Shown here in pieces: positions 39,596 to 55,836 of a DNA stretch of 64,000 bases. Below the pieces are notes generated by a model. It was not told the DNA's origin. It saw only the letters and a program-made list of their open reading frames with translations, and made no database searches. Origin of the DNA: Nitrospirota bacterium. GTDB taxonomy: Bacteria; Nitrospirota; Thermodesulfovibrionia; SZUA-242. Position 1 is the stretch's first letter. Each line of letters opens with the position of its first letter. The DNA lies in NCBI GenBank assembly GCA_027021335.1, contig JALUUO010000111.1, positions 498 through 64,497 of the forward strand, given 5' to 3'. The translations under genes and the position numbers were made by a program.

Positions 39596-40071
39596 GTTAC
39601 CGGATAGGCCATGGTTACGATTCTCATCGCCTGGTTGAGAAGAGAAAGCTGATTCTGGGCGGAGTGGAGATTCCATTTGAAAAGGGGCTGGCGGGACACT
39701 CTGACGCTGATGTCCTATGCCACGCAATAACCGACGCACTTATCGGGGCCCTAGGCCTTGGCGACATAGGAATGCATTTTCCTGATACCGATCCGGCCTG
39801 GAAGGGAGCCGACAGTCTTTACCTGCTTGGCAAGATGGTTGAAAAAGTGGTTGATATGGGTCTTGAAGTCACTTGGGTCGACACTACGGTAGTGGCCGAA
39901 AAACCCCGAATCGCTCCATACATAAACCGCATGAAGAAAAGGATTTCATCAGCCGGAATTTCAGAGGACAAAATTAATATAAAGGCTAAAACCGCTGAGG
40001 GCATGGGCCCGGTAGGCCGTGGTGAGGGTATGGATGCCTATGCCGTCTGTCTGCTTGAGATAATTGCTTAA
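39592..40071 (+). CDS. ispF: 2-C-methyl-D-erythritol 2,4-cyclodiphosphate synthase
   Basis: RIGHGYDSHRL and HSDADV motifs; 159 aa; 4-nt overlap with ispD. Confidence 0.9.
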   Translation: MSYRIGHGYDSHRLVEKRKLILGGVEIPFEKGLAGHSDADVLCHAITDALIGALGLGDIGMHFPDTDPAWKGADSLYLLGKMVEKVVDMGLEVTWVDTTVVAEKPRIAPYINRMKKRISSAGISEDKINIKAKTAEGMGPVGRGEGMDAYAVCLLEIIA

Positions 40072-40112
40072 TCTTTAAATGGAGTTGGTTAAAGTAAAGT
40101 TATCTGTATATC

Positions 40113-40796
40113 GTGTTTAACCTTGGGAAAAACTGTTTTTGCAATCACTGGGGAAGATCGCTTATCGAACAACTGCTTGTAGTGGCCACTATAGGCATAG
40201 TAGCAGCTGTCGGGGTGCCGGAATACAGCAAATTTGCCTCTAAAAATAGAATAAAAAGAGCTGCTAACGACCTGGTCCAGGAGATGAGACTTACCAGGAC
40301 AATCGCCATGCTGGAAAACAGGGAGTATTTAATGATTTTCGATAAAGATCCTGACTCGAACCCCGGCACTAATGATGACAGATACCTTATCGGCTTTGAC
40401 GGAGATGGAGACAAGCAACTGAAAACCCAGGGCATCGATGGATACCAAAACGGGCCTGTAAAGGTTATAAACCTTTCCGATTATGGACCAGCTGTAACGT
40501 TTGGAACGCTTTCCGAACGCAGAACAAACGGCGACCCGGTGGATAACTCTTATTGCAAAGGCAAAACCGCCTGCTTCGGCAATACCAAGCCTGCACGTGA
40601 AGTATTCAAGCCCTCCGGATCTGTTGGTTTTAGAGGATCTGTATACTTTCAAGACAACCCGGATAAGTTCAACTCAAGAGGTTTTTCCTATGCTGTTGTG
40701 GTGAGCAACTTTTCCGCAAGAATTAACCTATGGCGCTGGAACGGTGAAAAAGATAAGCCGCCTTCAAGTTTTCCGTACTGGACGGAGCTGCGTTAG
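40113..40796 (+). CDS. Type IV pilin-like minor pseudopilin, FimT/FimU (GspH) family, paralogue 1
   Basis: Prepilin cleavage/methylation motif G|RSLIEQLLVVATIGIVAAVGVP (Glu at +5), ~210-aa mature protein, and a conserved C-terminal WRWNG...W.E. GTG start; the 14-aa leader is MFNLGKNCFCNHWG. Confidence 0.7.
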   Translation: MFNLGKNCFCNHWGRSLIEQLLVVATIGIVAAVGVPEYSKFASKNRIKRAANDLVQEMRLTRTIAMLENREYLMIFDKDPDSNPGTNDDRYLIGFDGDGDKQLKTQGIDGYQNGPVKVINLSDYGPAVTFGTLSERRTNGDPVDNSYCKGKTACFGNTKPAREVFKPSGSVGFRGSVYFQDNPDKFNSRGFSYAVVVSNFSARINLWRWNGEKDKPPSSFPYWTELR

Positions 40797-40864
40797 TGCC
40801 TGATGAATATGCCAGCGCTTCCGGACACAAAAGCGTCAAAATATGTAAAGATGTTCCGTATGCT

Positions 40865-40880
40865 ATGTAATTCATTACAT
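40865..40880. promoter_or_regulatory. Inverted repeat ATGTAAT-tc-ATTACAT ~95 bp upstream of the sigma-54-like promoter; candidate enhancer-binding (bEBP) site
   Basis: Read directly; the position is consistent with an upstream activator sequence. Confidence 0.3.
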
Positions 40881-40966
40881 AATCACGGATGTCTTATGCT
40901 CTTTGCAACCTTAAAAAACACTTAAGTTTCAGCATGTTTTATCCGACCGGGAAAATACGTATATCC

Positions 40967-40982
40967 TGGCATGAAAGATGCT
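40967..40982 (+). promoter_or_regulatory. Sigma-54 (RpoN)-type promoter candidate TGGCAT-N5-ATGCT upstream of the second FimT-like gene
   Basis: GG and GC dinucleotides sit at the canonical -24/-12 spacing (TGGCATgaaagATGCT), ~75 nt upstream of the ATG at 41059. Confidence 0.4.
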
Positions 40983-41058
40983 GGCAAATCTGTAAGTGGA
41001 GGCTTGAATTATAATGTGTTTATGCTGTTTATCAAGTAAAGGGGGCGCCAAGTAAATA

Positions 41059-41793
41059 ATGTTTAGCATGAAAAGTATCTATTTCTGCAACCGGCGTGGC
41101 GTATCTCTTATCGAGCTGGCTGTTGTAATTGCGATTACAGGTTTTATAGCGGCCATAGGAATTCCTCAATACAGCAGGTTTGCTGCTAAAAACAGTGTGC
41201 AAAGATTTGCAAGCGACTTGGTCCAGAATATAAGACTTGCAAAAACAATAGCTGAAAAGGAAGACAGAGAGTATTTAATAGTTTTCGACCAGGTTAATAA
41301 CAGGTACTTATTCGGCTTTGATGGAAACGGTGACGGCGATCTTCTTGACGTTACTATTGATGGATTCGGAACCTGCCAATATGATGCAAATAATAATGGA
41401 ACCATAGAAGAAACTGAAAGAACTCCGGCTAATGATCAGGATCTTAATCTCGACGGCGTGCCTGATTGCATAAGAGTTGTGAATTTAAACGATTATGGGA
41501 ACTACGTAGCAATCGGTTATCAGGAACTAGACTCAATAATGCCGCCAAACCCTCCAGATCCAGATTATCCGCCTATTCCCGCTACCGGCCTGGATTTTCC
41601 TGGTAATACTATTGTTTTTAACAATTTAGGTGCCGTTGATAGCCCGGGGTTTATTTACCTTCAGCATGCCAACACCAACAGCGGTTACAGTTACTGCGTA
41701 GCTGTAGTCGGATTCGCAGGTGGAGTAAGCATGTGGAGATGGGATGGAGATGCGGCAAGGCCAGCTGTGACAACATGGACGGAGGTAAGATGA
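41059..41793 (+). CDS. Type IV pilin-like minor pseudopilin, FimT/FimU (GspH) family, paralogue 2
   Basis: G|VSLIELAVVIAITGFIAAIGIP prepilin motif. Clear paralogue of the 40113 gene (shared ...NRIKR/VQRFA.DLVQ..RLA/TRTIA...EYL..FD...YL.GFDG.GD... and a C-terminal WRW.G). The 14-aa leader is MFSMKSIYFCNRRG. Confidence 0.7.
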   Translation: MFSMKSIYFCNRRGVSLIELAVVIAITGFIAAIGIPQYSRFAAKNSVQRFASDLVQNIRLAKTIAEKEDREYLIVFDQVNNRYLFGFDGNGDGDLLDVTIDGFGTCQYDANNNGTIEETERTPANDQDLNLDGVPDCIRVVNLNDYGNYVAIGYQELDSIMPPNPPDPDYPPIPATGLDFPGNTIVFNNLGAVDSPGFIYLQHANTNSGYSYCVAVVGFAGGVSMWRWDGDAARPAVTTWTEVR

Positions 41794-42290
41794 AACAGGG
41801 GAGGGCAGGACAAAACGGCTTCACACTTGTCGAGGTTCTTGTGGCGCTTGTAGTGCTGATATCCGGTATGCTTGGAGTAATGGGCATGCAGTACATGTCT
41901 GTGCAGGGAAACGCTACAAGCAGAAATATGAGGGTTGCCACAAATCTTGGACAAATGCAGATGGAGATGTTACAGGCAACGCCATTTAATAATCTCGCGC
42001 AAGGCAATGACTCTCCTGTGCTGGACAATTCGACATCCGGAGGTGTTGTGTTTCAAAGAATATGGTGGGTGCAGCCAAACTGTTCTGTTCTTGCATTAGG
42101 CATAAATGATGCAAATGACAACCCCGCTGATCCATGCAACCCTGCTCTTTTAGGCACGGATATCTGTGTCGTGGATCCCGACCCCGCTGCTGCAGCGCCG
42201 GTTTCGGCCATTCGTGTAAGAACCTGCTGGACCGACCGCTTCGGCAACGCTCACTCGGTAACCTTTAACGATGCCAAGAACAATCTTTAG
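41790..42290 (+). CDS. pilV: Type IV pilus minor pilin PilV
   Basis: MKQGRAGQNG|FTLVEVLVALVVLISGMLGV is the canonical PilV N-terminus. Strong GGAGGTAAG RBS. The start overlaps the stop of the preceding gene. Confidence 0.8.
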   Translation: MKQGRAGQNGFTLVEVLVALVVLISGMLGVMGMQYMSVQGNATSRNMRVATNLGQMQMEMLQATPFNNLAQGNDSPVLDNSTSGGVVFQRIWWVQPNCSVLALGINDANDNPADPCNPALLGTDICVVDPDPAAAAPVSAIRVRTCWTDRFGNAHSVTFNDAKNNL

Positions 42291-42312
42291 ACTCTGCGAG
42301 GTGGAATATATA

Positions 42313-43320
42313 ATGCGTTATAACAGAAACAATCTTGGTTATACGCTGGTGGAATTAATGGTTGCCACAGTGGTTGGAATGGTGCTGATAGCCGGAGCTA
42401 CAGCCACTTTTATCGTGCAAAACCGCTCTTATATAAGTACGGAGAGTGTCTCGGAGCTTAATTCTCAGTCGAAAACAGCCCTTAATATCATAACGGATGA
42501 TATCAGAAACGCCGGTGCCGGGACACCGTTTAACCTTTCTACAAATCCTATAAACGGACATACATCCGTTATAGAGTTTACTGACGGGGGCAATGTCGCA
42601 CCGGACTCCATTACGGTAGTAGGTGGATTCCGGGAAATAGGTAATATTACGGTTGACCCAAATACTCCGCTACAAATAGTTAACGGCAATAATATATGGA
42701 TTGCAAATGCTGCAGATCGTATAGACATAGACGACAGGAGCAACATAAACATTGACGGAACATTTTTTAGCAGAATTGTCAACTGCAACAATACAGGTGG
42801 CGTATGCACAAGTCCCGATGATTTCACGGGTGTCCTCCTAAGCCTGCCGCCCGGAGAGCTGGTCGTAAACCGGCCGGTATATCTTGTAGAAGATGTAACC
42901 TACTGCCTAAACGGCACAAATCTGTTCAGGATCAGAAGAAATGCCAATGTAGTGATCTGTACCGGTGGAGCTCAGTCTGACACGGAGCTTATAGCCCAGA
43001 ACATAGCAGATCTTCAGTTTGCTTACGCTGTTGATAATGACAATAATAGCCGTGTGGATATTGAAAAGGGCGACCCTAATATTCTCGACGATGCTGATTT
43101 CATTAATGACGGTGCTGAACTAGCAGCGCTGCAGCTAAACCCTGATACTATAAGGGCGGTAAGAGTAAGCATACTAGGCATATCAAACAGGGCAGACCCT
43201 GACATTACCACAGGAAACCCTCCAGCTATCATAGAAAACCGAGTGCATGCGGCTACCAACGACGGCTTTAAAAGACGGCTGTGGCAGACGGTTGTAATCA
43301 TGCGAAACATGCAGGAGTAA
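42313..43320 (+). CDS. pilW: Type IV pilus assembly protein PilW (minor pilin)
   Basis: MRYNRNNLG|YTLVELMVATVVGMVLIAGATATF prepilin N-terminus, ~335 aa. GAGGTGG RBS. Confidence 0.8.
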   Translation: MRYNRNNLGYTLVELMVATVVGMVLIAGATATFIVQNRSYISTESVSELNSQSKTALNIITDDIRNAGAGTPFNLSTNPINGHTSVIEFTDGGNVAPDSITVVGGFREIGNITVDPNTPLQIVNGNNIWIANAADRIDIDDRSNINIDGTFFSRIVNCNNTGGVCTSPDDFTGVLLSLPPGELVVNRPVYLVEDVTYCLNGTNLFRIRRNANVVICTGGAQSDTELIAQNIADLQFAYAVDNDNNSRVDIEKGDPNILDDADFINDGAELAALQLNPDTIRAVRVSILGISNRADPDITTGNPPAIIENRVHAATNDGFKRRLWQTVVIMRNMQE

Positions 43321-43334
43321 AGAGGAGGAATCTT

Positions 43335-43886
43335 ATGTTTACACAAAATAAAAATAGCATACAAAGTATAAAAAACGAACGCGGCTTTGTTCTCGTGGTG
43401 GCTCTTGTCCTACTGCTTGTCCTTTCGATAATCGGTGTGATGGGTATTACATCCAGCACGGTGGAAAACATTATGGTAGGCAATACAAGGCTCAGATCTA
43501 CTCACTTTTTCGAGGCAGACAGCGGAGTTCAGATAGCTATGCCTATGGTGAATCAGGTGATGGGAGATAAAAACAATGATGGATTTGCGGGTCTGATTCC
43601 TGACTTTAACATCAACGCCTTTGTTCAGGAGTTAACACTTCAGCCCTTTGCTCCGGATTGCAGAGACGATTTCAAGTTTGAGGGCAACGACGGGCTTGTA
43701 AGCGTGGACATCGACAGGATGTATAGAAGAAGGGCTGCCGGTTGTTCTATCGAATTCGCCAGTGAGGCGGATATCGCAGGCAGATGCACCAACGTGTTTT
43801 ACAGGATAAATTCTACAAGCGCCAGCGCAGAAACAGGGGCCAAGGCAACGGTAGGCACGGTTTACCGCTACGTTCCGACCAGATAG
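43335..43886 (+). CDS. pilX: Type IV pilus assembly protein PilX (minor pilin)
   Basis: MFTQNKNSIQSIKNERGFVLVVALVLLLVLSIIGV has a PilX N-terminal domain. AGGAGG RBS before the ATG at 43335. Confidence 0.75.
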   Translation: MFTQNKNSIQSIKNERGFVLVVALVLLLVLSIIGVMGITSSTVENIMVGNTRLRSTHFFEADSGVQIAMPMVNQVMGDKNNDGFAGLIPDFNINAFVQELTLQPFAPDCRDDFKFEGNDGLVSVDIDRMYRRRAAGCSIEFASEADIAGRCTNVFYRINSTSASAETGAKATVGTVYRYVPTR

Positions 43887-43918
43887 CTTTTATAAATACA
43901 AAGAGGAGATAAACAGTT

Positions 43919-44221
43919 ATGAAGATAAAGACACTAAGAATATTTCTTTCGATATTATTTATCCTTGGAACAGCCGTGTATGCCTTTCCTGAATCCCTGG
44001 GTTCCCCTGAATGGAAAGTAGGAACAATTACCGATGTAAACAGAAACTCAATAGAAATTGACGGCAAGCTCTTCATTGTAAGCGCATTAGTCGAGATCAA
44101 AACCGTCAGAGGCGAAAAACTGGGCTCCGGCCTAGAGCTTCTCACAGGAGTTGAAAGTATCTTCTTTAAAGAAAAAGATGACAAAATCGTTGAAATTCGA
44201 ATATTTAAAAGCGCTCAATAA
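43919..44221 (+). CDS. Small secreted protein (signal peptide plus ~75 aa), unknown function, between pilX and pilY1
   Basis: Strong AAGAGGAG RBS and a signal peptide MKIKTLRIFLSILFILGTAVYA. No recognisable motif. Confidence 0.5.
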   Translation: MKIKTLRIFLSILFILGTAVYAFPESLGSPEWKVGTITDVNRNSIEIDGKLFIVSALVEIKTVRGEKLGSGLELLTGVESIFFKEKDDKIVEIRIFKSAQ

Positions 44222-44232
44222 GAGGTGACGTT

Positions 44233-47200
44233 ATGAAAGCAACTATAAATAAGACGGTTCTCAAAAGTATCTGCTTACTGATTATTGTCTGCCTGAGTGC
44301 CTTTATGCTTGCTACTGATGCCACGGCAATGGGCGGCGGCGGTGGCGGCGGCGGTGGCGGCGGCATGACCAGTCCTGCCGTCATTAATCCTTCCGGCGGC
44401 GCCCTTCCAGGCGGAGAGACAGGCACACTCTACAGCACTACGATAACTGCAAGCGGATGTGACGCAAACTACCGCTGGACCTTGACAAGCGGCAACCTGC
44501 CGCAGGGCTTATCGTTTTCCGATTTTTTCAGTCAGACCATTACGATTTCCGGAATGCCTGAACTGGTTGAAACCGCGGGATTCACCCTAGAGGTGGTGGG
44601 CGACGGATGCACCAGCACCGCAGCAACATTCACACTTAACGTAGTGCAGGGCAACAATCCGGTTATCACTACCCAAGGCCTTTTATACGGGCTTGTGGGC
44701 ACTGCCTATAGCGATACTATAACAGGAAGCTTAGGCACCACCGACTACGGCTGGAGCGTGGTTGCAGGCAGCCTGCCGGCCGGCTTGGCCCTGGATTACG
44801 ATGACGCTGTTCCGCGCGTTGCAACCACTCCGTCTGTAAATTTATCCGGAACCCCGACAGTCGCCGGACTTTACACTTTTACCGTGATGGTCACAGACAG
44901 CCTGGGCAAAACCGGTTCTAAGGATTTTACAATAGATATTCAAAACGATATTCAGATCATAACATCCTCCCCTCTTCCGGATGGAATGGAAGGAGTGCCA
45001 TACTCTCTTACTTTGCAAGGAATCGGAGGCAACAGTTCATTTTATCTATGGAATATCGTCGATTTGGGCAGCGATCCCTCTCTTCTTCCAGGCTTGGGCA
45101 TAAACGAGACAACCGGTGAACTATCGGGAATACCGACCCAGGAAGGAGACTATATTTTTACCGTTGTGCTTGAGGACACTTCTAACGGTTTTGCAGTAAC
45201 AAGGGATTTTACCCTTAAAGTCTACCCTAACGATCTCGCTTTTGATACTACCGTAATTCCGCCCGATGGTGTAGCCTGTACGACTTACACTGCAAATTTA
45301 GCAGGAACAGGTGGCACCCAGCCTTATAACTGGAGCCTGACAGCCGGCCTGCTGCCTCCGGGCCTGACACTGGCTGCCAACGGAACTCCATCCACAGTTA
45401 TATCAGGAACGCCTAGAGAGGCCGGTCTATTTGCTTTTACCGTATCCCTTACAGACAATGCCGGTGTTAACAGGCAAAGAACCTTTTCGATCTCAATAAC
45501 CGGTGATCCAAGCCCGTGCAGTGTTAATCTTGATTACAATACGGCATATCCACCGTTCATCTCGACGGCTGTAACCCCTAATGTTCTTCTTATACTGGAT
45601 AACTCCGGAAGTATGTATGAATTTGCCTATAAGGACCCTGGAACATCAAATGACAGGTCAACCCGGGATGTCAGTTACACGGCAGGCGTGCCCTATTACG
45701 GTTATTTCGAGTGCGACAAGGACGGTTTGATCACGTATACCTACAATGCCGCAGAAGGCTATTTCGAGCAGACTAACGTGGCCCTTCCGGCTGCTGACAG
45801 CTTTAACGGCTGTTTTCTCAACTGGCTTACAATGAGAAGAGTGGATATTGCAAGAAAAGTTCTAACAGGAGGTAAATACGACAGCGCCAATGGTTTACTG
45901 GTCGCTGCGGAAAGACCGAACAGAAACAGGTGGAAGGGCTACGACACCCAGACTTACAGGGTATATTATGATACAACAATAAGCAATTATGAACTGATAC
46001 GTGTCTGTACTGACGGAAGCAGCGGCAATTGCGATACCGGAGACGGCACATTTTATAACGTCAGGGTTAAAGTCAACAGCGAACCAAAAGGCATAATACA
46101 GGAAACTTACTCCCTTGTAAGGTGGGGCCTTATGTTTTTTAATACCTATGAGGGTGGATATCTAGATGTACCTTTGGATGGAGGGCCGCCGACAGAGCCT
46201 CCTCTTCCTCCAATCGATCCTGACCACTTAAACACCCTTGTTGAAGCTATACGAACCACGAACCCGACCACATGGACACCACTGGCCGAAACGCTTTACG
46301 AAGCCACAAGATATTACCAGCGTGAGGTCTCTGCCTATAACGGCGGCGTGGATTATTCCACATACCCTGATCCCATGCAGTTCGACTGCCAGAAGAACTT
46401 TGTGCTTCTGCTTACGGACGGTGAATCAAGCAAGGACGAAAATCTTCCTAACTCATGCCTGGGCGGCTCAGTCACCGACACAAATTTCGATATTCAGGAA
46501 TACATGACCAGAATCGCGGATAACGAGGGACCCTCACTTGATAACGGACTGGGCATAGGCATAACCTGGGGTGACCAGGCTTGTCAAAACGCCAACAGCA
46601 TTGACGGCACGTTTTATCTCGAAGGCGTGGCATACTATGCCAACACAAACGATATGAGACCCGATCTAGCCGGTGATCAGTTCGTTAAAACCTATACCGT
46701 TTTTGCATTCGACGAATCCCCTATCGGAGCCGGAATTCTGCAAACAGCCGCCAAGTATGGAGCTTTCAAGGATTCAAACGATAACTTACCTTATCCTATC
46801 CCTGATGTAGCAGATGAGTGGGATAAGGATGCCGATGGAATCGCGGACAGATTTTTTAAGGCTTCCGAAGGTGGATCTCTTGCCGGTAAAATCAAAATGG
46901 CCCTATTTGATATTCTTCAGAAGAAGTCCTCAGGAACATCAGCTGCCGTGCTTGCAACCACATCAAAGGGAGAAAGTGCTGCATACCAGGCCTATTTTCA
47001 ACCAACCATAATGACTGCCGAAGGAACTGCTGACTGGATAGGCGGCGTGTATGGATTGTTTCTTGATAAATACGGCAATACGCGTGAGGATGACCGTGGC
47101 GACGCGAGACTTTGCTATGATGTTAATAGTCCGCCTGGCTGCACCGCACCTAACAAAATAATTCAGATGTACTACGACAATGTTGATAATAAAACTTATG

Positions 47201-49410
47201 CCAAACGGTATCCAGGCACTGTGGTGCGTAACGGTATGGGTAACGGCATGCCTACTAGTCTTCCTGACGGAACACCTACCGGTATCCCCGAGGAAAAGAT
47301 ACCGATTGATGACGTAAAAAACCTATGGAACGGCGGCAACACGCTTTGGGCAAAAAATGCCGACACAAGAAAGATATTTACGACACTGAACGGTTACGAG
47401 TTTGTCTCAGCAGAGCTGCCCAATATCGACCCTGCTACAGGCAGCACATTTTATGATGGAAATGCAGCCGAGCTGCAAGTTAAACTCGGCGCCGGAGATG
47501 CAGCCGGATCCGCCGACATAATAAACTATATAAGAGGGGTTGATATACCGGGAAACAGGCCCCGGACAATCGGAATTGACATAACCGGCGACGGCGACTT
47601 TGACGATCCAGGAGAAATTAATGTCTGGAAGCTTGGAGACATCGTGTATTCGACTCCTGTTGTTGTGACCAGGCCTAGGGAAAACTATGATTTTCTGTAT
47701 AAGGATGCCTCTTACTTCTTCTATCTGAACAAATATTTCAGTAGAAGACATGTGGTTTATGCAGGCGCAAATGACGGAATGCTTCATGCTTTTAACGCCG
47801 GCTTCTACGATGCAAGAAATCTCAGGTACTGCAAGGGAGGCGACACTGACGCCGACAGGATAATCAGTGACACGGAATGCGCAGGCTCTGGCGAGCCTGG
47901 TCTTGGCGAAGAGCTATGGGGTTTTGTGCCGCGCGGAGTTCTGCCGACCCTTAAGCTGCTTATGAACGTAGACTACACTCATGTCTACTATGTGGACTTG
48001 AAGCCTAAAACAACCGATGTGAAAATTTTCGACTGCAACAATCCACCGGACGTTCATGTAGGAGATACTTCTGATTCAGTCTGCTGGGGAACCATCCTGA
48101 TCGGCGGATTAAGATACGGCGGAAAGGCTAATCCCGAGTACTTTGCCTTGGATATAACCGATCCGCAAAATCCCAGACTGCTCTGGACGTTTTCCGATCC
48201 TGGTATGGGCTTCAGTATGTCGCGTCCGGCAATAGCCAAGACATGTGACAACGGCGGCACTTGCAAGTGGTTTGCGATATTTGGGTCCGGAGCGACAGAC
48301 TACACACCGGACTCTGATCTTACCGGATTTTCGGCTGCAAACGGCCAAATCTATGTGCTGGATCTCTCATCAGGGGTAAATGGGGTTATAAGCAACTGGA
48401 CCGAAAACACTAATTTCTGGAAAAAAGATACTGGAAAACCGGCAACATTTATGTCCGACCCTATAACTGTTGACGGGTGGCTTGATTATGCTGTCGATGT
48501 AACCTACATCGCGGAGAATTACCAAACAGGAGGTGCATGGAGCACAAGGATCCTGAAGCTCACAACAAACCGGGGAACCCTTATCGATCCATCACTCTGG
48601 ACGCTTTCATCGCTTGCTGATGTAGCTTCCATCGATACCGGCAACCTGGATAAGATCAGAAGGATAACATCAGCGCCATCCATCTCTATGGATGAACAAG
48701 AAAATATGTGGGTCTTTTTCGGAACAGGACAGTTCCTGGGCTTACAAGATAAAAACCGTACAGACACAGGAGCCTTTTATGCTGTAAAAGATAAGAGAAA
48801 CTGCTGGGACAACAACAGCTGTCCCGAGGTGACTAACCTGTATAATGTATCCAGCGACGTTATATGCCCCGAAAAAGAGCCGGGAAGCTGTACGGCCACA
48901 ACAAGCCTGGGAAATCTGGAGCTTGATATTGAGCAAAATTACGATGGGTGGGTAATGTACTTTGAGAACCTTCTTGAAACAGTGGACTTTACAGGTGCGA
49001 CCCTTCTTCATACCGGAGAAAGAGTGCTGTCTAAGCCGCTGGTTCTTGGAGGCATTGTGACATGGACGACGTTTATACCTGGTGACGAAAAGTGTAACCC
49101 TGAAGGCGAAAGTAACATATATTCGGTCTACTATAAAACAGGTTCGTCATATAAAGATTACGTTTTCAATGCACAGGCATATAAAACCAAACAAAATAAC
49201 ACACCCGAGGCTGTTGCCAGGGTAAAAAGACTCGGCCCTGGAATGGCTTCATCTCCCAGTGTGCAGGTAACAGCAAAAGGCGCTGCAAATATAACAATAA
49301 CCGATCCAAACGGACAGCTTCTGCAGTTAAGAACTACACCGGCTTTTAGAGTTGGCGACACTCCTGTTACCTCGATAAACAAAGAAATTTATGACCCGGA
49401 TTGCAACTGA
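44233..49410 (+). CDS. pilY1: PilY1-like type IV pilus tip adhesin, 1725 aa, with N-terminal He_PIG/cadherin-like repeats, a vWA-like domain and a C-terminal PilY1 beta-propeller
   Basis: Signal peptide then a Gly11 tract; 4-5 'putative Ig' repeats (…Y..T..A.GG.....W.L..G.LP.GL.L…GT…G.Y.FTV…D); a vWA MIDAS (LLILDNSGSM); the PilY1 signature VYAGANDGMLHAFNAG and a Ca-binding-like loop DITGDGDFDDPGE. Its position after pilVWX is consistent. Confidence 0.8.
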   Translation: MKATINKTVLKSICLLIIVCLSAFMLATDATAMGGGGGGGGGGGMTSPAVINPSGGALPGGETGTLYSTTITASGCDANYRWTLTSGNLPQGLSFSDFFSQTITISGMPELVETAGFTLEVVGDGCTSTAATFTLNVVQGNNPVITTQGLLYGLVGTAYSDTITGSLGTTDYGWSVVAGSLPAGLALDYDDAVPRVATTPSVNLSGTPTVAGLYTFTVMVTDSLGKTGSKDFTIDIQNDIQIITSSPLPDGMEGVPYSLTLQGIGGNSSFYLWNIVDLGSDPSLLPGLGINETTGELSGIPTQEGDYIFTVVLEDTSNGFAVTRDFTLKVYPNDLAFDTTVIPPDGVACTTYTANLAGTGGTQPYNWSLTAGLLPPGLTLAANGTPSTVISGTPREAGLFAFTVSLTDNAGVNRQRTFSISITGDPSPCSVNLDYNTAYPPFISTAVTPNVLLILDNSGSMYEFAYKDPGTSNDRSTRDVSYTAGVPYYGYFECDKDGLITYTYNAAEGYFEQTNVALPAADSFNGCFLNWLTMRRVDIARKVLTGGKYDSANGLLVAAERPNRNRWKGYDTQTYRVYYDTTISNYELIRVCTDGSSGNCDTGDGTFYNVRVKVNSEPKGIIQETYSLVRWGLMFFNTYEGGYLDVPLDGGPPTEPPLPPIDPDHLNTLVEAIRTTNPTTWTPLAETLYEATRYYQREVSAYNGGVDYSTYPDPMQFDCQKNFVLLLTDGESSKDENLPNSCLGGSVTDTNFDIQEYMTRIADNEGPSLDNGLGIGITWGDQACQNANSIDGTFYLEGVAYYANTNDMRPDLAGDQFVKTYTVFAFDESPIGAGILQTAAKYGAFKDSNDNLPYPIPDVADEWDKDADGIADRFFKASEGGSLAGKIKMALFDILQKKSSGTSAAVLATTSKGESAAYQAYFQPTIMTAEGTADWIGGVYGLFLDKYGNTREDDRGDARLCYDVNSPPGCTAPNKIIQMYYDNVDNKTYAKRYPGTVVRNGMGNGMPTSLPDGTPTGIPEEKIPIDDVKNLWNGGNTLWAKNADTRKIFTTLNGYEFVSAELPNIDPATGSTFYDGNAAELQVKLGAGDAAGSADIINYIRGVDIPGNRPRTIGIDITGDGDFDDPGEINVWKLGDIVYSTPVVVTRPRENYDFLYKDASYFFYLNKYFSRRHVVYAGANDGMLHAFNAGFYDARNLRYCKGGDTDADRIISDTECAGSGEPGLGEELWGFVPRGVLPTLKLLMNVDYTHVYYVDLKPKTTDVKIFDCNNPPDVHVGDTSDSVCWGTILIGGLRYGGKANPEYFALDITDPQNPRLLWTFSDPGMGFSMSRPAIAKTCDNGGTCKWFAIFGSGATDYTPDSDLTGFSAANGQIYVLDLSSGVNGVISNWTENTNFWKKDTGKPATFMSDPITVDGWLDYAVDVTYIAENYQTGGAWSTRILKLTTNRGTLIDPSLWTLSSLADVASIDTGNLDKIRRITSAPSISMDEQENMWVFFGTGQFLGLQDKNRTDTGAFYAVKDKRNCWDNNSCPEVTNLYNVSSDVICPEKEPGSCTATTSLGNLELDIEQNYDGWVMYFENLLETVDFTGATLLHTGERVLSKPLVLGGIVTWTTFIPGDEKCNPEGESNIYSVYYKTGSSYKDYVFNAQAYKTKQNNTPEAVARVKRLGPGMASSPSVQVTAKGAANITITDPNGQLLQLRTTPAFRVGDTPVTSINKEIYDPDCN

Positions 49411-50398
49411 TAATTCTGTGATGACAAAGACGAAAACCGTTTACCTTCCAGTTTTGCGTATCCAGAGAGCCGCACTTGCTGCGGCCTTCTGGATGCTTGT
49501 TTTGGCACTTGCGGTTGGATGCAACAGCAATATCGATGAAGTTCCTGTCGAGACCGGCAAGAACCAACCAGGCAGTTATACTGCAACGGATGACATTTCT
49601 CAGGCAGGCGGAAATTCATCTTCTTTGTTCGATGTGAGCATCGGGCCTCCAAATGCCACAAAAGCGAGTATTATCCAATTGGATGCCGATCGATCAAAGC
49701 TTTACGGCGGAAATGTGAACTGGTATGTTAATGGCCTGCTGGTAGAGCATAACGGAGGAACTCGTTTATCGTACAAAGACATTTCCAGGGGCGATGTGAT
49801 AAAAGCGGTTATTGTCAAAGACGATGGAGAGGAAATATCGTCGAACGAGTTAGTTATTAAAAACTCTCCGCCGACTATTCAACAGGCCGAGGTGCAGCCG
49901 AAGTTCCCGATGGTCGGCAACACTCCAAAGGTTAAGGTTTGGGGCAGTGATATTGACGGGGATAAGGTTACTTTTGAATACCAGTGGTATGTAAACGGAA
50001 AACCTGACGGCAGGTGGAGTGTTCTTGAGGCGGAGTTCAAAAAGAGCGATAAAATCAAGGTTAAAATAACCCCTCATGACGGACTGGAGTATGGAAAAAG
50101 TGTAACCCTCACACCGATTATTACAAACGCCCCGCCTGTTATAAATACACACCGGGGAAGATACGACGGAAGTGTATATAGAAGTCAGCTTATGGCTGAT
50201 GACCCAGACAATGATACTCTGTTTTTCGAGCTGATTGAGGCGCCAGAAGGCATGAAAATAGATTCAGGCTCCGGCCTGATAACCTGGCGGGTTATATTAG
50301 AGGCGGAAAAAACTTATCCAATTAAAGCGCGCGTCTCTGACGGAAACGGCGGCAGCAGTGTTTACGCTTTTAAGCTGACAACACACCTGGAAAAATAA
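49391..50398 (+). CDS. Lipoprotein with internal WYVNG repeats and a C-terminal cadherin-like/He_PIG domain, immediately after pilY1
   Basis: Lipobox LALAVGCNSN. Duplicated module (NVNWYVNGLLVEHNGG.../FEYQWYVNGKPDGRW...). C-terminal PPVINT...DPDNDTLFFELIEAPEGMKIDSGSGLITWR. Overlaps the pilY1 end by 20 nt; start at 49391 or 49421. Confidence 0.5.
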   Translation: MTRIATDNSVMTKTKTVYLPVLRIQRAALAAAFWMLVLALAVGCNSNIDEVPVETGKNQPGSYTATDDISQAGGNSSSLFDVSIGPPNATKASIIQLDADRSKLYGGNVNWYVNGLLVEHNGGTRLSYKDISRGDVIKAVIVKDDGEEISSNELVIKNSPPTIQQAEVQPKFPMVGNTPKVKVWGSDIDGDKVTFEYQWYVNGKPDGRWSVLEAEFKKSDKIKVKITPHDGLEYGKSVTLTPIITNAPPVINTHRGRYDGSVYRSQLMADDPDNDTLFFELIEAPEGMKIDSGSGLITWRVILEAEKTYPIKARVSDGNGGSSVYAFKLTTHLEK

Positions 50399-50453
50399 GA
50401 CGTAGAATAAAAGCGTAACAGTTACCGCCAAGACAGAAAAAACCCGGAGTTTA

Positions 50454-51275
50454 ATGGATCCCACCTTTATCTGTATAGGCACGTACCGTGCCGGCACTAC
50501 CTGGCTATACAATGTGCTTAAAGAGCATAGTGATATTTTTCTTCCTGATGAAAAAGAGCTGATGTTCTTCAGCCATCACTATGAAAAAGGTATCCAATGG
50601 TATAAGAAGTTCTTTGAAGGCGCCTGCGGCAGCAAGTGCTCCGGAGACATATCACCCACCTATCTTAGTTCTCCTGAAGCGCCCGAACGTATTTACAGGC
50701 ATTTCCCGAATGTTAAGCTCATCCTTTCATTACGCAACCCTCCTGACCAGGTATACTCGTTATATAAACTATGGCTTGCAAGAAATTACACGGATAAAGA
50801 CATAAACAAAGTTATAGAGGAAGAGGATGAGTTTCTTAACAACATTCTCTACTGGAAACATCTCTCAAAATACCTGGAGTTTTTTGACCGAGAAAAGATA
50901 TTAGTCTTATTTTTTGAAGATCTTGGTAAAGACCCTAAGGCATATCTCGGCCAGGTCTACAGGTTTCTGGGCGTTGAGGAGAATTACCCTGAAAGTATTT
51001 ATGAAAGACGCAATCAGTACAGGGCGCCACGCAGCATGATAATCGAGAATATTATTACAGGTACGGGTGATATGCTGCGCCGTATGCGGATGCTTGGATT
51101 GAAATCTTTTTTAAACAAGCTCGGTATCAGCGAAAAAATAAAAAAAATTAATACAGCAAGTCAGCAGAAAGGTGAAATACCGATAGAGGTTCGTAAACGT
51201 ATTAATGAGTACGTAAAGCAGGACAAAAGCGGTCTTGAAAAATTCACAGGCAGGGATCTGTCCTTCTGGTATTGA
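50454..51275 (+). CDS. Sulfotransferase-family protein (PAPS-dependent)
   Basis: 5'-PSB-like motif IGTYRAGTTWLYNVL near the N-terminus and a 3'-PB-like RNP region (LSLRNPPDQVYSLY); ~270 aa, cytoplasmic. Confidence 0.65.
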   Translation: MDPTFICIGTYRAGTTWLYNVLKEHSDIFLPDEKELMFFSHHYEKGIQWYKKFFEGACGSKCSGDISPTYLSSPEAPERIYRHFPNVKLILSLRNPPDQVYSLYKLWLARNYTDKDINKVIEEEDEFLNNILYWKHLSKYLEFFDREKILVLFFEDLGKDPKAYLGQVYRFLGVEENYPESIYERRNQYRAPRSMIIENIITGTGDMLRRMRMLGLKSFLNKLGISEKIKKINTASQQKGEIPIEVRKRINEYVKQDKSGLEKFTGRDLSFWY

Positions 51276-51421
51276 GTGTTTTTTAAAAGTTCACTCAACC
51301 TCTTAAACCCCATCACCGCTGCAAAAATAGTTGCAGTCCACAGCAGGTCTGTATTAAGCTTATCTTGTGATTAATAACGTTATTTTAAAAACCCTTTTGG
51401 TTCTATCTGAAATTTTCCACA

Positions 51422-52672
51422 ATGCATAAATTAAGATTTACAACAGCCGGCGAATCACACGGCCGTACTCTTTGCGGCACCATCGAGGGAATTCCATCCA
51501 ACATGAAACTTGCAGCGGATGACATAAACCACGATCTTGCGCGCAGGCAGAAGGGCTACGGCCGGGGCGGGAGAATGAAAATCGAGTCTGACAGCGTCCA
51601 AATCCTCTCTGGCCTCAGGTGGGGAGCCACTCTTGGAAGCCCCATAAGCCTACTTATAGAGAATAAGGACTGGCCGAACTGGGAAAGAGGTATGTCAATA
51701 GATGCACTTGATACCGGGGCTATTGATCCGGTTGTACGGCCAAGGCCAGGGCATGCCGATCTTGCCGGAGCGCTTAAGTATGATCAAGATGATGTACGTA
51801 ATATACTTGAACGATCAAGCGCCCGGGAGACTGCTATGCGGGTTGCATTGGGCGCAATAGCTAAGAAGTTTCTTGCTGAAATAGGTATCAAAATCTATAG
51901 CTACGTAATTGAAATAGGACCTGAAAAGGCTTACTTGGAACCTTTTGTTACGGAGGCAAGCTCGGATAATTTTTCAGATAGCTCCTCAGATAGTTTTTCG
52001 GATAATCTTTCGGATAATCTTTCGGATAATTTTTTCGAAAAATTTTATGAAAACCTCTTTGACAGGGCTGAAGCCTCAGAGCTGCGATGTCCGGACAATG
52101 ACGCCTCGGAAAGGATGAAGTATGAGATAGATCTGGCCATTAAAAAGGGGTATTCGCTTGGAGGTGTTTTCGAAATTGCGGCCACAGGCGTTCCTCCAGG
52201 CCTTGGAAGCCATGTTCAGTGGGATAGAAGGCTGAATGCGAGACTGGGCAAAGCAATAATGAGTATCCAGGCAATAAAAGGGGTTGAGATAGGCCTTGGG
52301 TTCGAGATGGCCCGGCGTCCGGGTTCCGAGGTGATGGATGAAATATTTCACGGGCCTGGGGGTTATTACAGGGAAACAAACAACAGCGGCGGCATAGAAG
52401 GTGGAATATCGATCGGCATGCCGGTTGTTCTGCGCGCCGCCATGAAACCTATCCCGACTCTTCGGCGGCCTCTGAAATCCGTTAATATCCGCACTCATGA
52501 ACCAATGGAGGCTGCCTACGAGCGATCAGACGTTTGTGCGGTGCCGGCTGCCGCCGTTGTGGGAGAAGCAATGACAGCCTTAACACTTGCCGACGAGGTG
52601 CTTATTAAGTTCGGTGGTGACTCAATGGCGGAATTAAAAAGAAATCTGGAAGGCTACTTAAACTCTTTGTAA
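51422..52672 (+). CDS. aroC: Chorismate synthase with a ~50-aa low-complexity (SDN-repeat) insertion
   Basis: [22 protein letters not shown]-terminus and a conserved C-terminal half. The insertion …[34 protein letters not shown]… is encoded by ~12-bp tandem repeats. Confidence 0.85.
51962..52030 (+). repeat. In-frame ~12-bp tandem repeat (TCGGATAATYTT and variants, ~5 copies) inside aroC
   Basis: Read directly from the sequence; it encodes the S-D-N/S-F/L repeats. Confidence 0.85.
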
Positions 52673-52742
52673 CTCCAATACCATCGTGGCAAGCTGCAAT
52701 ACACCAAGATTTTTAGTTTCACCAAGTTAAACGATTTCTTTC

Positions 52743-54344
52743 ATGAACATTATTCTTGTCGGATTTATGGGCTCTGGAAAAACAACGATCGGCCTGGAGC
52801 TGAGCCGCCTTACGGGCCGTCCGTTTGTGGACACCGATGAAATTATCGTTGAAGTTGAAAATGACAGCATTGCATCTATCTTCAAGAAAAAAGGCGAGAA
52901 ATATTTCCGGAAGATTGAGCAGAAGGTGGTTTGCGAGGTCGCTTCGCGCACAGGTGTGATCATATCAACCGGCGGTGGTGTAATGCAAAACCCTGATAAC
53001 GTGCTGAGGCTTAAAAACAGTGGTATTCTTGTCTGGCTTAAAACCGAGCCTGAAATCATACTTAAAAGAACAATGGGCGACGGCGGAAAACGCCCGCTTC
53101 TTAACGTGGATGAACCGCTTATGGAGATAAATAAACTTCTTAGTACTCGCACTGAATCGTACAAGCTGGCCGATATATGTATAGATACCAGCTATATTAC
53201 GGTTGGCGAAGGTGTGCAGGAAATACGTGAAAAACTCGCGCTTGACTGCGAGTCTGTCCGTGTGGAGCCGGCCGGAGAAGAAAAAGAGGACAGAAGCTAC
53301 GAGATCCTAATAGGCAGGGGCACGCTGCATGGGCTCGGAGCCAGGATTCAAGGGCTTCGCCCGACGCAGGTGGCTGTTGTGTCTAACCCAAAGATTTTCG
53401 CGCTATATGGAGACCAGGTCGAAAGTTCGCTCAGCAGCCATGGAATCAAGTCCAGACGTGTTGTTATTCCGGACGGCGAAGAGTACAAGCATTTTTTGTG
53501 GCTATATAAAATTCTAAGTGAACTCCTGTCAAACCGGTTTGACCGAAAAAGTCTGATCGTGGCCCTTGGCGGAGGAGTGATTGGCGATATCTCCGGTTTT
53601 GCCGCAGCAATATACATGCGGGGGATACGATGTGTGCAGGTACCCACTACGCTTCTTGCCCAGGTGGACAGCTCTGTCGGCGGAAAAACCGGTATAAACC
53701 ATCAACTGGGCAAGAACATGATCGGAGCATTTTTTCAACCCTCCCTGGTGGTTATGGACCAGAATGTTCTAAGCAGCCTGCCCCAAAGGCAACTACGGGC
53801 CGGACTGGCCGAAATCATCAAGTATGGCGTGATTCGAGACAGAGAACTTTTCGAAACCATGAAAAGGGAAAAGGAGGATATTATTGCTCTTGGCCCATCG
53901 CTTGATAAAATAATCATAAGGTCCTGCCAAATTAAGGCGGAAGTTGTTGCAGAAGATGAACGAGAGTCAGGCCTGCGGGCGATTTTGAATTACGGCCACA
54001 CCATCGGGCATGCCATAGAAACCCTTACAGAGTACAAACGTTATCTGCACGGCGAGGCGGTGGCAATAGGAATGCGGACTGCCGCGGATCTTGCGGTCGC
54101 ACTCGAGCTGCTTGAGACAAGCGAGGCCGATTCCATACGTAGATTGATCAGCAGTTACGGACTGCCTGTGACGATTCCGGAGGAGTTGTCCCCGGAAATG
54201 CTTATAGAGGCAATGGCTCTTGACAAAAAAACCGTTGGCAACATACTGAGTTTTGTTCTTCCCAGGTCCATCGGAAGCGTCGGTATTATTAAGAACGTGC
54301 CGAAATCCACAATAAAGAAAACGCTGAAACTTGCACAAAAATAA
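52743..54344 (+). CDS. aroKB: Bifunctional shikimate kinase / 3-dehydroquinate synthase (AroK-AroB fusion)
   Basis: N-terminal P-loop MNIILVGFMGSGKTTIG (shikimate kinase, ~170 aa). C-terminal DHQ synthase motifs (GGGVIGDISGFAAAIYMRGIRCVQVPTTLLAQVDSSVGGKTGIN, HTIGHAIE...HGEAVAIGM). Confidence 0.85.
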   Translation: MNIILVGFMGSGKTTIGLELSRLTGRPFVDTDEIIVEVENDSIASIFKKKGEKYFRKIEQKVVCEVASRTGVIISTGGGVMQNPDNVLRLKNSGILVWLKTEPEIILKRTMGDGGKRPLLNVDEPLMEINKLLSTRTESYKLADICIDTSYITVGEGVQEIREKLALDCESVRVEPAGEEKEDRSYEILIGRGTLHGLGARIQGLRPTQVAVVSNPKIFALYGDQVESSLSSHGIKSRRVVIPDGEEYKHFLWLYKILSELLSNRFDRKSLIVALGGGVIGDISGFAAAIYMRGIRCVQVPTTLLAQVDSSVGGKTGINHQLGKNMIGAFFQPSLVVMDQNVLSSLPQRQLRAGLAEIIKYGVIRDRELFETMKREKEDIIALGPSLDKIIIRSCQIKAEVVAEDERESGLRAILNYGHTIGHAIETLTEYKRYLHGEAVAIGMRTAADLAVALELLETSEADSIRRLISSYGLPVTIPEELSPEMLIEAMALDKKTVGNILSFVLPRSIGSVGIIKNVPKSTIKKTLKLAQK

Positions 54345-54411
54345 CCGGCTAAAAAGCCATAAGACCAAACAAGCCAACAGGACCTATAAATAAACAAAAA
54401 TAAACAAAAAA

Positions 54412-54942
54412 CTAAGGAAGATAGCCTTTCAGCATATCATCTGTTTTTTTGGTGTTCCACTTGCGGGGACCTATGAATCTCTCAACAACAACTCCCTCGG
54501 TGTTTATAATAAATGTCTCCGGGATACCTGTAAGCCCGAAGGTCTTAGCCATTTTTCCATCCGGGTCTATAAGAACCGGAAACTTATATCCATAACCATT
54601 GACAAACGCCGCTGCCTCGCCCGGGTCGTCGTCATATAGTACGGCAAGCATCTGAAACTGTTCTGACTCCATTTTTTTGCGCAACTCCTCCATGGAAGGC
54701 ATTTCCTCACGGCAAGGCGGGCACCAGGTAGCCCAGAAGTTCAGAAAAATCACCTTTCCCTTTAACCCGGAAAGACTCCATGACTTTCCAGTTGTGTCAC
54801 TTAGCACAAAATCCGGAGCAGGCTTTCCAACCTCGGCTTTAGGTCCTTTATATTCCGCTCCCTGTTGACAGGCGCCGGCAGAAAACAGTAACGGCACAAA
54901 AATCAATACAAAAAATATAAAACGATTATAAGTATGTGTCAT
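54412..54942 (-). CDS. TlpA/ResA-family thioredoxin-like lipoprotein
   Basis: Lipobox LFSAGACQQG and active-site FLNFWATWCPPCREEMP. Confidence 0.8.
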   Translation of the reverse strand: MTHTYNRFIFFVLIFVPLLFSAGACQQGAEYKGPKAEVGKPAPDFVLSDTTGKSWSLSGLKGKVIFLNFWATWCPPCREEMPSMEELRKKMESEQFQMLAVLYDDDPGEAAAFVNGYGYKFPVLIDPDGKMAKTFGLTGIPETFIINTEGVVVERFIGPRKWNTKKTDDMLKGYLP

Positions 54943-54948
54943 TTTTTC

Positions 54949-55836
54949 TTATCTCCAAAGATCATCAAGTTTGAGATTCGTCAGGGAAAGCGGGTTGACA
55001 TTTACTCCCCAAAGCTTTGTGCCGATGTGCAGGTGCGGACCTGTAGCACGGCCGGTTGAGCCGACATATCCCACGACATCGTTTTTATCTACACTGCCGC
55101 CCGGCTCTGCGGCAAATCCATCCAGATGCATATAGAATGAGTAAAGACCATGTCCGTGGTCAATAACAATGGTTTTACCTCCAAAAAACAGGTCATCGGC
55201 CAGCACTATCTTTCCTGAGCTTATAGCATGAACAGGAGCACCGCGCTTCCCCTTAATATCTATTCCATTATGCGGACTTTTCTCTATGCCGTTAATAATA
55301 CGCCTTGAGCCAAATACGGCTCCTATTTTACCGTTAAGCGGTACAACAAAACCGCTGGTCCAGTATGCCGGTGAACCTATGCCCCATATCTTTTTCAGAC
55401 GGGCGGATTCGCGATCCGCCCTGGCTGCGTTTTTCGGACTTAATGTCACTTTATCTTCCGGCAGACTGAGCCGCTCCACGCGAAACGATGCATCCAGCAC
55501 CGTCAAGTCGACCGACCGCTTTTGGCCGTTAAACTCTACCTCAATCGGGTAACGGCCAGGGGAAAGTGACCGTTCCACAGAAGACAGCCCAAAATAAAGA
55601 CCTGTTTGTTTTTTTCTAAAATTTTTTGTGATTTTTTTTGTAAAAATTATTTTTTCTGTCTTCCGTCCGGCAAAACGGCCTACAGGCAAAGTGTTTTTGT
55701 TTCCCTGTGATTGCTCCACAATAACAAGAAATGCATCGCCCTGCGCTACTTCCGACGGCCTCAGACTTATGTTAAAAGCCGTTGCTGTTACAGGAGCTAA
55801 AAACAGTAAAAAAAGAGTAAGGGTTCGAATCCACAT
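54949..55836 (-). CDS. M23 family metallopeptidase
   Basis: Signal peptide; HNGIDIKGKRGAPVHA...GSTGRATGPHLH with HxxxD/HxH zinc ligands. Confidence 0.85.
   Translation of the reverse strand: MWIRTLTLFLLFLAPVTATAFNISLRPSEVAQGDAFLVIVEQSQGNKNTLPVGRFAGRKTEKIIFTKKITKNFRKKQTGLYFGLSSVERSLSPGRYPIEVEFNGQKRSVDLTVLDASFRVERLSLPEDKVTLSPKNAARADRESARLKKIWGIGSPAYWTSGFVVPLNGKIGAVFGSRRIINGIEKSPHNGIDIKGKRGAPVHAISSGKIVLADDLFFGGKTIVIDHGHGLYSFYMHLDGFAAEPGGSVDKNDVVGYVGSTGRATGPHLHIGTKLWGVNVNPLSLTNLKLDDLWR

Follow-up and report, generated by a model that had tools for sequence, protein, structure and literature searches.

A cadherin-like lipoprotein associated with type IV pilus gene clusters, and an adjacent sulfotransferase gene of probably unrelated function, in a Nitrospirota bacterium

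The region downstream of pilY1 in a Nitrospirota bacterium raises the question of whether two successive genes, encoding a lipoprotein (here termed LP) and a sulfotransferase of the 3'-phosphoadenosine 5'-phosphosulfate (PAPS) type (here termed ST), serve the type IV pilus (T4P) beside whose genes they lie, or whether their position is coincidental. The window, i.e., the whole stretch of DNA analysed, comprises 64,000 nucleotides (nt) and corresponds to positions 498 to 64,497 of the forward strand of contig JALUUO010000111.1 (assembly GCA_027021335.1); comparison loci fetched for this analysis are designated by L and a number. The open reading frame (ORF) map agrees with the initial annotation in placing pilY1 at positions 44233 to 49410, LP at 49391 to 50398, ST at 50454 to 51275, and aroC at 51422 to 52672. 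The interpretation which we favor, with somewhat better than even confidence, is that the two genes differ in standing, LP being an accessory of the T4P tip and priming module and ST a cytoplasmic glycan sulfotransferase which was placed beside it by a lineage-specific rearrangement.

Loci harboring LP were collected by a metagenome scan with 11 closer LP sequences, after which tblastn, ORF clustering, and Pfam annotation were applied. Homologues sharing 28 to 43% identity with LP were encountered as the final gene of an operon which specifies, in order, PilY1 (He_PIG domains plus propeller), a GspH-like pilin, and PilV-like, PilW, and PilX-like proteins. At least seven metagenome loci (L025, L029, L035, L040, L043, L049, and L054) contain the operon in full, and its gene order is partially represented in L033, L037, L038, L041, and L047. 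The window displays a different arrangement, in which the minor-pilin genes are followed by pilY1 and then LP, while a third gene order is evident for P0064, the most distant LP homologue (27% identity). The latter is located within a core T4P cluster composed of pilS/R-like genes, two pilin genes, pilD, a sigma54 two-component pair, LP, a small helix-turn-helix (HTH) gene, pilMNOPQ, and aroK-aroB. LP directly follows pilX or pilY1 in approximately 14 of the 15 informative metagenome loci, the sole exception being L034, in which the LP homologue is not beside pilus genes. The linkage of its homologues to T4P genes in three different gene orders is strong evidence that LP, whose family occurs in the T4P clusters of many uncultured bacteria, is a pilus-associated accessory. 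The initial proposal that LP forms part of the pilY1/minor-pilin unit is, therefore, upheld.

The protein appears to be undescribed, as it is named by none of the curated libraries searched; a literature search combining PilY1 with “cadherin-like” retrieved nothing. An NCBIfam search with LP, ST, and PilY1 returned a named family for none of the three, and the LP homologue of L029 matched the NCBIfam tandem-95 entry below its cutoff. The view that T4P machines possess, in LP, a widespread and previously undescribed accessory component is put forward tentatively, as a possibility which falls somewhat short of an even chance. If LP is a true pilus accessory, several uncultured lineages would have an unnamed lipid-anchored, cadherin-like part in the complex of PilY1 and minor pilins which primes and tips the pilus; to our knowledge, accessory factors governing the stability of PilY1 or adhesion have been described for just a few model organisms. 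In L109 and L110 (positions 10001 to 18781), the most distant LP homologue is followed by the small HTH gene, pilMNOPQ, and aroK-aroB, such that shikimate genes flank pilus genes as they do in the window.

The LP gene may begin at either of two in-frame ATG codons. Initiation at position 49391 yields a protein of 335 amino acids (aa) and a 20-nt overlap with pilY1, as initially described, whereas initiation at position 49421 yields 325 aa and a more usual signal peptide, in which case the overlap is replaced by a start located 10 nt past the pilY1 stop codon; with either start, pilY1 and LP are closely packed. The predicted lipoprotein signal peptide (49421 to 49522), as read directly from the sequence, terminates in the lipobox LAVG-C, with the Cys codon at 49520 to 49522. 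In an alignment of 21 sequences (20 homologues of 23 to 70% identity in addition to LP), this Cys is almost invariant, being present in at least 90% of the aligned homologues; the window LP conforms to the lipobox pattern [LVI][ASTVI][GAS]-C, and lipoboxes were detected in 12 of the 13 distant LP loci. The assignment of the gene as a lipoprotein gene was thereby borne out. LP yielded no Pfam match to the N_methyl motif (PF07963), although the upstream minor-pilin genes do match it. On the basis of its sequence, therefore, LP is not a pilin but carries a lipobox in place of the N_methyl motif, and it does not resemble PilE, which usually takes this place in the operon, as had been noted.

The mature portion of LP is predicted to form three beta-sandwich modules. 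The first (49622 to 49870) contains an NWYVNG motif, is modeled by AlphaFold2 (AF2) with a predicted local distance difference test score (pLDDT) above 90, and has W101 and N104 as conserved residues. The second (49871 to 50134), also defined from the AF2 model, contains DIDGD and QWYVNG motifs and is bordered on both sides by NxPP linkers, with D177, D179, W189, D220, N236, and P239 invariant in the alignment. The duplication of the WYVNG modules which had been pointed out initially is genuine, comprising two exact motifs within internal repeats that share 29% identity (E = 7e-6). The third module (50135 to 50395) is of the He_PIG/Big_9 cadherin-like type, harbors a DPDND motif, and is matched equally well by Pfam He_PIG (E = 9.9e-07; 29.6 bits versus a cutoff of 24) and Big_9 (E = 1.5e-06; 29.4 bits versus a cutoff of 23.6). 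The LP homologues have in common the lipobox Cys, the Trp of each WxVNG motif (W101 and W189), the DxDGD and DPDND motifs, and the NxPP inter-domain linkers. The AF2 model, which was built on the LP alignment (pLDDT 83.8), consists of a helix (residues 12 to 32), a disordered tether (35 to 67), and the three beta-sandwiches; its best PDB folds according to Foldseek are extracellular cadherin (EC) triplets of cadherin-23 and protocadherins (E = 4e-8).

The He_PIG domain of LP had been described as being of the same type as that at the PilY1 N terminus. Pairwise comparison with the PilY1 He_PIG repeats revealed no significant similarity (best E = 1.2), and the two are, therefore, of the same type at the Pfam-family level only. 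A recent origin of this domain as a copy of a PilY1 repeat was ruled out on the same ground (pairwise E > 1).

We propose that LP serves specifically as an accessory to the T4P tip and priming module formed by PilY1 and the minor pilins. The gene would be cotranscribed with, and probably translationally coupled to, pilY1, and its product would be retained in the outer membrane by its lipid anchor, the +2 residue not being Asp. After the lipid-modified Cys, the protein has a disordered tether of approximately 35 residues and three tandem cadherin-like domains bearing the Asp-rich DxDGD and DPDND motifs. Anchored in the outer membrane, LP may bind or stabilize the PilY1/minor-pilin complex, possibly in a Ca2+-dependent fashion, and would thereby resemble other lineage-specific accessories of such clusters.

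The main alternative for LP is a surface-adhesin role, whereby it would be a generic adhesin or filler lipoprotein without a specific function in the pilus, and its place after pilY1 would be as incidental as that of ST. The composition of LP is consistent with such a role, since a profile of the protein returned 101,487 matches among 1.84 billion representative proteins, with giant multi-repeat adhesins on top; its domains themselves are thus generic, its modules are ubiquitous among giant adhesins, and its He_PIG domain has no specific kinship to that of PilY1. The L034 homologue, lying away from pilus genes, is in line with the same view. Against it stand the three independent arrangements in which LP accompanies T4P genes, among homologues which diverge to 27% identity, and its place directly after pilX or pilY1 in nearly all informative metagenome loci, and we consider this alternative very improbable.

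The second gene, ST (50454 to 51275, forward strand), encodes a protein of 273 aa which had been identified as a cytoplasmic PAPS-type sulfotransferase, an identification that stands. Pfam Sulfotransfer_1 (PF00685; E = 3.4e-20; 73.0 bits versus a cutoff of 22) and Sulfotransfer_3 (PF13469; E = 1.1e-16; 62.2 bits versus a cutoff of 27) both match, and direct reading of the sequence reveals neither a signal peptide nor a transmembrane segment. Its closest PDB matches include 3rnl (E = 5e-24), the heparan sulfate (HS) 3-O-sulfotransferase 3-OST-1 (E = 1.2e-16), and the HS N-deacetylase/N-sulfotransferase NDST (E = 1e-13). The 5'-phosphosulfate-binding (PSB) loop, G9-T-Y-R12-A-G-T-T-W17 (50478 to 50504), is situated at the very start of the protein, fits the pattern G-x-x-K/R-x-G-T/S-T/S, and aligns with GVRKGGTRA of 3-OST-1; G9, R12, G14, T15, and W17 are invariant among 18 ST orthologues, and at position 12, at which the window enzyme has Arg, the more distant relatives mostly carry either Lys or Arg. 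Within the pair K34-E35 (50553 to 50558), E35 aligns with the Glu of the 3-OST-1 motif ENEVHFF, which is the catalytic base of that enzyme. The 3'-phosphate-binding (PB) segment, R94-N-P-P-D-Q-V-Y-S102 (50733 to 50759), aligns with LRDPSERVLS of 3-OST-1. Six residues (G9, K34, E35, R94, P96, and S102) do not vary among 32 ST homologues. ST is very likely an active, PAPS-dependent, cytoplasmic enzyme.

With respect to enzyme class, the named proteins among the 22 PDB matches of ST at E <= 0.01 are carbohydrate, cytosolic (SULT-type), and CurM sulfotransferases, the others being labeled just “Sulfotransferase”; the name of a tyrosylprotein sulfotransferase (TPST) occurs nowhere among them. Protein sulfation of the TPST/RaxST type was accordingly set aside as a candidate activity. 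ST is instead proposed to be an O-sulfotransferase of the HS-3-OST/NDST-like branch.

The genomic contexts of ST relatives bear directly on whether the enzyme is linked to the pilus, as had been suggested. The order pilY1-LP-ST recurs in L007, in which ST, LP, and PilY1 are 81%, 60%, and approximately 48% identical to those of the window (for PilY1, over a C-terminal fragment only), and in L008 (the same as L011, a Nitrospirota metagenome-assembled genome [MAG]), with 84%, 63%, and 53% identity, respectively. L031 exhibits LP-ST, at 84% identity for ST and 64% for LP (the latter over a C-terminal fragment only), with PilY1 not on the contig. In a neighbor-joining tree, the four pilY1-linked STs (window, L007, L008, and L031) form one clade, whose sister clade consists of orthologues with 70 to 77% identity from other Nitrospirota and Thermodesulfovibrio MAGs.

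The sister-clade genes (L001 to L006, L012 to L017, and L023) occupy an entirely different position, in the order HSP20, a phosphatidylinositol-phosphate (PIP) synthase-like CDP-alcohol phosphatidyltransferase, ST, surE, an FAD protein, and pcm. ST precedes surE by 8 to 19 nt (0 to 50 nt in L004 and L005, in which a divergent ABC transporter takes the place of the genes upstream of ST), and neither pilY1 nor any other pilus gene was found within 10 kb of these loci. The SurE 3'-nucleotidase might, putatively, clear the 3'-phosphoadenosine 5'-phosphate by-product of sulfation. More distant relatives of ST (42 to 52% identity) with informative context are all located in polysaccharide clusters. 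A Desulfobacterales MAG (L106, the same as L020; ST 49% identical) encodes a Wzx flippase, five family 4 glycosyltransferases (GT4), and three STs; two metagenome contigs carry GT4 genes together with at least five STs (L107) and four STs (L108), respectively; and in a Schekmanbacteria MAG (L019; ST 52% identical), ST has an APS (adenosine 5'-phosphosulfate) kinase gene two genes before it and a Wzy_C gene after it. Polysaccharide-type neighbors of the ST relative were not detected in L018 or L021-L022. Thus, unlinked homologues of ST exist elsewhere, in surE-pcm loci and polysaccharide clusters, while synteny with pilus genes across related genomes is confined to one monophyletic Nitrospirota subclade; a role for ST in the pilus is not supported.

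The intergenic distances do not alter this assessment. The spacer between LP and ST (50399 to 50453) measures 55 nt, rather than the 56 nt first reported, and contains, 6 nt before the ST initiation codon, a GGAG Shine-Dalgarno sequence; the spacer is partly conserved in L007, L008, and L031. Folding of the LP-ST spacers indicated structure no greater than that of shuffled controls, with no terminator-like hairpin in the window spacer. A promoter and terminator consensus scan found no excess over shuffled sequence (29 versus 24.1±6 and 19 versus 16.5±4.1) and no sites in the LP-ST spacer, this type of scan being incapable of settling whether ST has its own promoter. Positions 16914 to 54344 of the window constitute a single co-directional run of unrelated genes, most of them separated by 10 to 110 nt, which includes cca-like, mltG, ispG, panC, nadA, a tail-specific protease gene, guaB, guaA, aspS, htrA, and ispD/F in addition to the pilus and aro genes. 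Because similar short gaps are the local norm in this run, the 55-nt gap carries no weight, and short spacing and common orientation in so dense a co-directional region are not proof of functional coupling. The aro genes beside the pil genes, both in the window and in L109/L110, show a likewise functionally unrelated neighborhood. Of the two readings offered initially, that of a coincidental neighborhood is consequently the better one, with the caveat that the adjacency is kept in all four members of the one subclade.

That retention, nevertheless, is the principal argument for a rival proposal, according to which ST is coupled to the pilus within the subclade, either by sulfating a glycan on PilY1, a pilin, or LP, or by producing a sulfated surface glycan which is bound by the He_PIG/cadherin-like domains of PilY1 and LP, such that ligand and adhesin are coexpressed. 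Also in its favor are the spacers of three of these four loci, which are short (43 to 55 nt) and terminator-free, and the resemblance of ST to carbohydrate sulfotransferases. Since the four pilY1-linked STs are monophyletic, however, a single ancestral rearrangement suffices to explain their position, and the sister-clade orthologues reside in a surE-pcm operon. No ST was found at approximately 15 distant LP/PilY1 loci, nor beside the Nitrospirae LP P0050 (40% identity), which is followed by convergent genes for a tetratricopeptide repeat (TPR) protein and penicillin-binding protein 1 (PBP1). The operon includes neither a glycosyltransferase nor an oligosaccharyltransferase gene, an insertion separates LP from ST in L031, and a link between PilY1 and sulfation was not found in the literature, in which just two papers name both PilY1 and sulfotransferase, each term appearing once or twice in them. 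Coupling of ST to the pilus is, for these reasons, considered highly unlikely. The same low probability is attached to a more elaborate version, in which a pilus-tip operon captured a glycan sulfotransferase and the sulfated glycan, whether at the cell surface or on PilY1 or LP, is produced together with the tip adhesin and LP and serves as their Ca2+-dependent ligand; if this were true, the arrangement would represent a bacterial counterpart of HS-binding adhesins.

The insertion in L031 comprises approximately 360 nt (330 to 726) between LP and ST, holds a 72-aa ORF (415 to 633) without a Pfam match followed by a short ORF fragment, and is missing from the window, L007, and L008; it is possibly a small inserted module of the toxin-antitoxin-like type. 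Downstream of ST, a convergent gene encoding an AAA_33 kinase-like protein of 527 to 585 aa is present in L007 (2552 to 2911), L008 (6475 to 10577), and L031 (1517 to 4381), with genes for a rhodanese and for a PMT_2 GT-C glycosyltransferase beyond it in L008 and L031, whereas aroC occupies this position in the window. A 33-aa match to the end of the L007 AAA_33 gene at positions 51212 to 51310 of the window (reverse strand), which overlaps the 3' end of ST and continues approximately 35 nt beyond it, may have been left over from an ancestral gene order. Assignment of the AAA_33 gene as an APS kinase gene was rejected, as no match to APS_kinase or to any NCBIfam entry was obtained for L007, L008, or L031.

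The most likely interpretation of ST, therefore, is that of a cytoplasmic, PAPS-dependent glycan sulfotransferase placed in its current position by lineage-specific rearrangement. Such an enzyme is proposed to sulfate a sugar of an envelope glycan, be it an exopolysaccharide (EPS), a lipopolysaccharide (LPS)-type repeat unit, or a glycolipid, during its assembly on the cytoplasmic face of the membrane. ST would have come to follow LP when the common ancestor of this small Nitrospirota subclade underwent a single rearrangement, and would now be a passenger, probably transcribed by readthrough from pilY1-LP and devoid of a pilus-specific role, in a manner comparable to the aro genes beside the pil genes.

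A different acceptor, namely, a lipid head group or small molecule such as an inositol- or sugar-containing membrane lipid, would leave the adjacency to the pilus genes equally incidental. It is suggested by the sister-clade gene upstream of ST, a CDP-alcohol phosphatidyltransferase which most resembles (archaetidyl/phosphatidyl)inositol-phosphate synthases, and by the occurrence of ST as a singleton without GT, Wzx, or Wzy neighbors in all Nitrospirota loci. The PIP-synthase-like scores fall below the curated cutoffs, however, and this gene is located 89 to 403 nt from ST, whereas ST is tightly joined to surE. Furthermore, the nearest relatives outside the Nitrospirota with informative context (L019 and L106 to L108) all reside in glycan clusters, and the best substrate-assigned PDB matches are carbohydrate sulfotransferases. 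We regard a lipid or small-molecule acceptor as unlikely, though less so than coupling to the pilus.

Several observations weigh against the combined interpretation of LP as a pilus accessory and ST as a passenger. The arrangement pilY1-LP-ST was kept in all four known members of the subclade despite divergence of PilY1 to 53% identity, and despite a change in what lies downstream of ST (aroC in the window, AAA_33 in L007, L008, and L031); selection for co-expression is therefore possible, for which retention in four lineages constitutes modest evidence at best. ST is, moreover, probably coexpressed with the pilus-tip genes, given that its spacer harbors neither a terminator nor a promoter-like site. 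The Nitrospirota STs have no glycosyltransferase neighbors, the glycan acceptor being predicted from more distant relatives only, and the PIP-synthase-like gene of the sister clade fits a lipid head-group acceptor equally well. As regards LP, its localization and its contact with PilY1 are purely inferred, and it is assembled from very common adhesin modules, as is apparent from the giant repeat proteins which lead its profile matches.

The minor-pilin genes (40113 to 43886, forward strand), identified from the ORF list and by matches to Pfam N_methyl, GspH, PilW, and PilX_N, comprise two FimU/GspH-like genes (40113 to 40796, 227 aa; 41059 to 41793, 244 aa), a pilV-like gene (41733 to 42290), pilW (42271 to 43320), and pilX (43281 to 43886). 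The FimU/GspH-like paralogues stand in tandem at the head of the minor-pilin operon and are separated by an unusually long gap of 262 nt. Between pilX and pilY1, a 100-aa ORF with a signal peptide (43919 to 44221, forward strand) has no Pfam match and no detectable homologue among the fetched loci; ORFs of similar size, also with a signal peptide, precede pilY1 in L025, L040, and L054, mutual homology being detectable only between those of L040 and L054. The pilY1 gene (44233 to 49410, forward strand) encodes 1725 aa with Pfam matches to He_PIG (E = 2.3e-28, four stretches) and T4P_PilY1 (E = 1.3e-13), in the order signal peptide, Gly11 run, four He_PIG repeats, von Willebrand factor A (vWA)-like DNSGS motif, and C-terminal PilY1 beta-propeller. 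The eleven consecutive glycines, directly after the signal peptide, are specified by a GGC x11 run (44332 to 44364) which could be prone to slippage.

The aroC gene, which follows ST as had been reported, begins 146 nt past it and precedes an aroK-aroB fusion (52743 to 54344). Within aroC, the 12-nt unit TCGGATAATTTT is repeated seven times (51962 to 52046), which gives chorismate synthase a central SDNF-type low-complexity insert of approximately 50 aa, and the NCBIfam alignment pairs 390 protein residues with a 343-position profile. An Rfam search of positions 39000 to 55000 of the window yielded zero matches. On the reverse strand (6059 to 14255), pilM-pilN-pilO-pilP-pilQ (8976 to 14255) is followed by a 163-aa ORF without a Pfam match (8488 to 8979) and then by a gene for a 790-aa Big_1/invasin-D3-like protein (6059 to 8431), which may be a further Ig-domain protein attached to a pilus operon.

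In comparison with known systems, ST most closely approaches, among substrate-assigned enzymes, the HS 3-OST/NDST sulfotransferases (PDB 1zrh, 1vkj, 1t8t, 3bd9, and 1nst), to which its residues 3 to 176 are similar (E = 1e-16 to 1e-13) and with which it shares the 5'-PSB loop, the position of the K-E catalytic pair, and the R...S segment of the 3'-PB site. It departs from them in being bacterial and cytoplasmic, without a membrane anchor, and in having an acceptor predicted by the neighborhood of its relatives only; relative to HS 3-OST, it bears Arg for Lys in the PSB loop and Met for His after the catalytic Glu. The bacterial sulfotransferase of PDB 3rnl, its best match, aligns over near full length, including the C-terminal third, albeit at low overall identity, and is silent on the substrate of ST because the deposit gives no function. 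XssA and XssE, the sulfotransferases encoded by the Wzx/Wzy cluster for synechan, a sulfated EPS of Synechocystis (PMC8205485), belong to the same Pfam families as ST (PF00685/PF13469), a likeness by family and not by direct comparison. That cluster is analogous to the Wzx/Wzy/GT4 multi-ST clusters of the 42 to 52% identical relatives, whereas the window ST is a singleton. As sulfated EPS is stated to be known only from cyanobacteria (PMC8205485), the polysaccharide clusters of L106, L107, and L108, with several STs, and of L019, with APS kinase, suggest that sulfated envelope glycans are wider in distribution than the described cyanobacterial cases.

LP shares its beta-sandwich fold and Asp-rich inter-domain motifs with the EC domains of cadherins and protocadherins and with He_PIG/Big_9/tandem-95 adhesins, the EC13-15 segment of cadherin-23 (E = 4e-8) being an example. 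Typical relatives of this kind are proteins of 2,000 to 7,000 aa with many repeats, whereas LP has three domains in approximately 300 aa and is predicted to be lipid anchored; owing to a different inter-domain geometry, TM-scores are low (0.24).

Lineage-specific accessory genes in minor-pilin/PilY1 clusters are exemplified by Pseudomonas aeruginosa PilY2 and Myxococcus xanthus TfcP, the latter a periplasmic, cytochrome-c-like protein reported to stabilize a PilY1 in a calcium-related way. LP exhibits neither sequence nor fold kinship to these proteins, being a three-domain cadherin-like lipoprotein. It nonetheless resembles them in its position, its gene lying within the fimU-pilVWXY1 unit without coding for a pilin, and the mechanism of TfcP is the one which, by analogy, we propose for LP.

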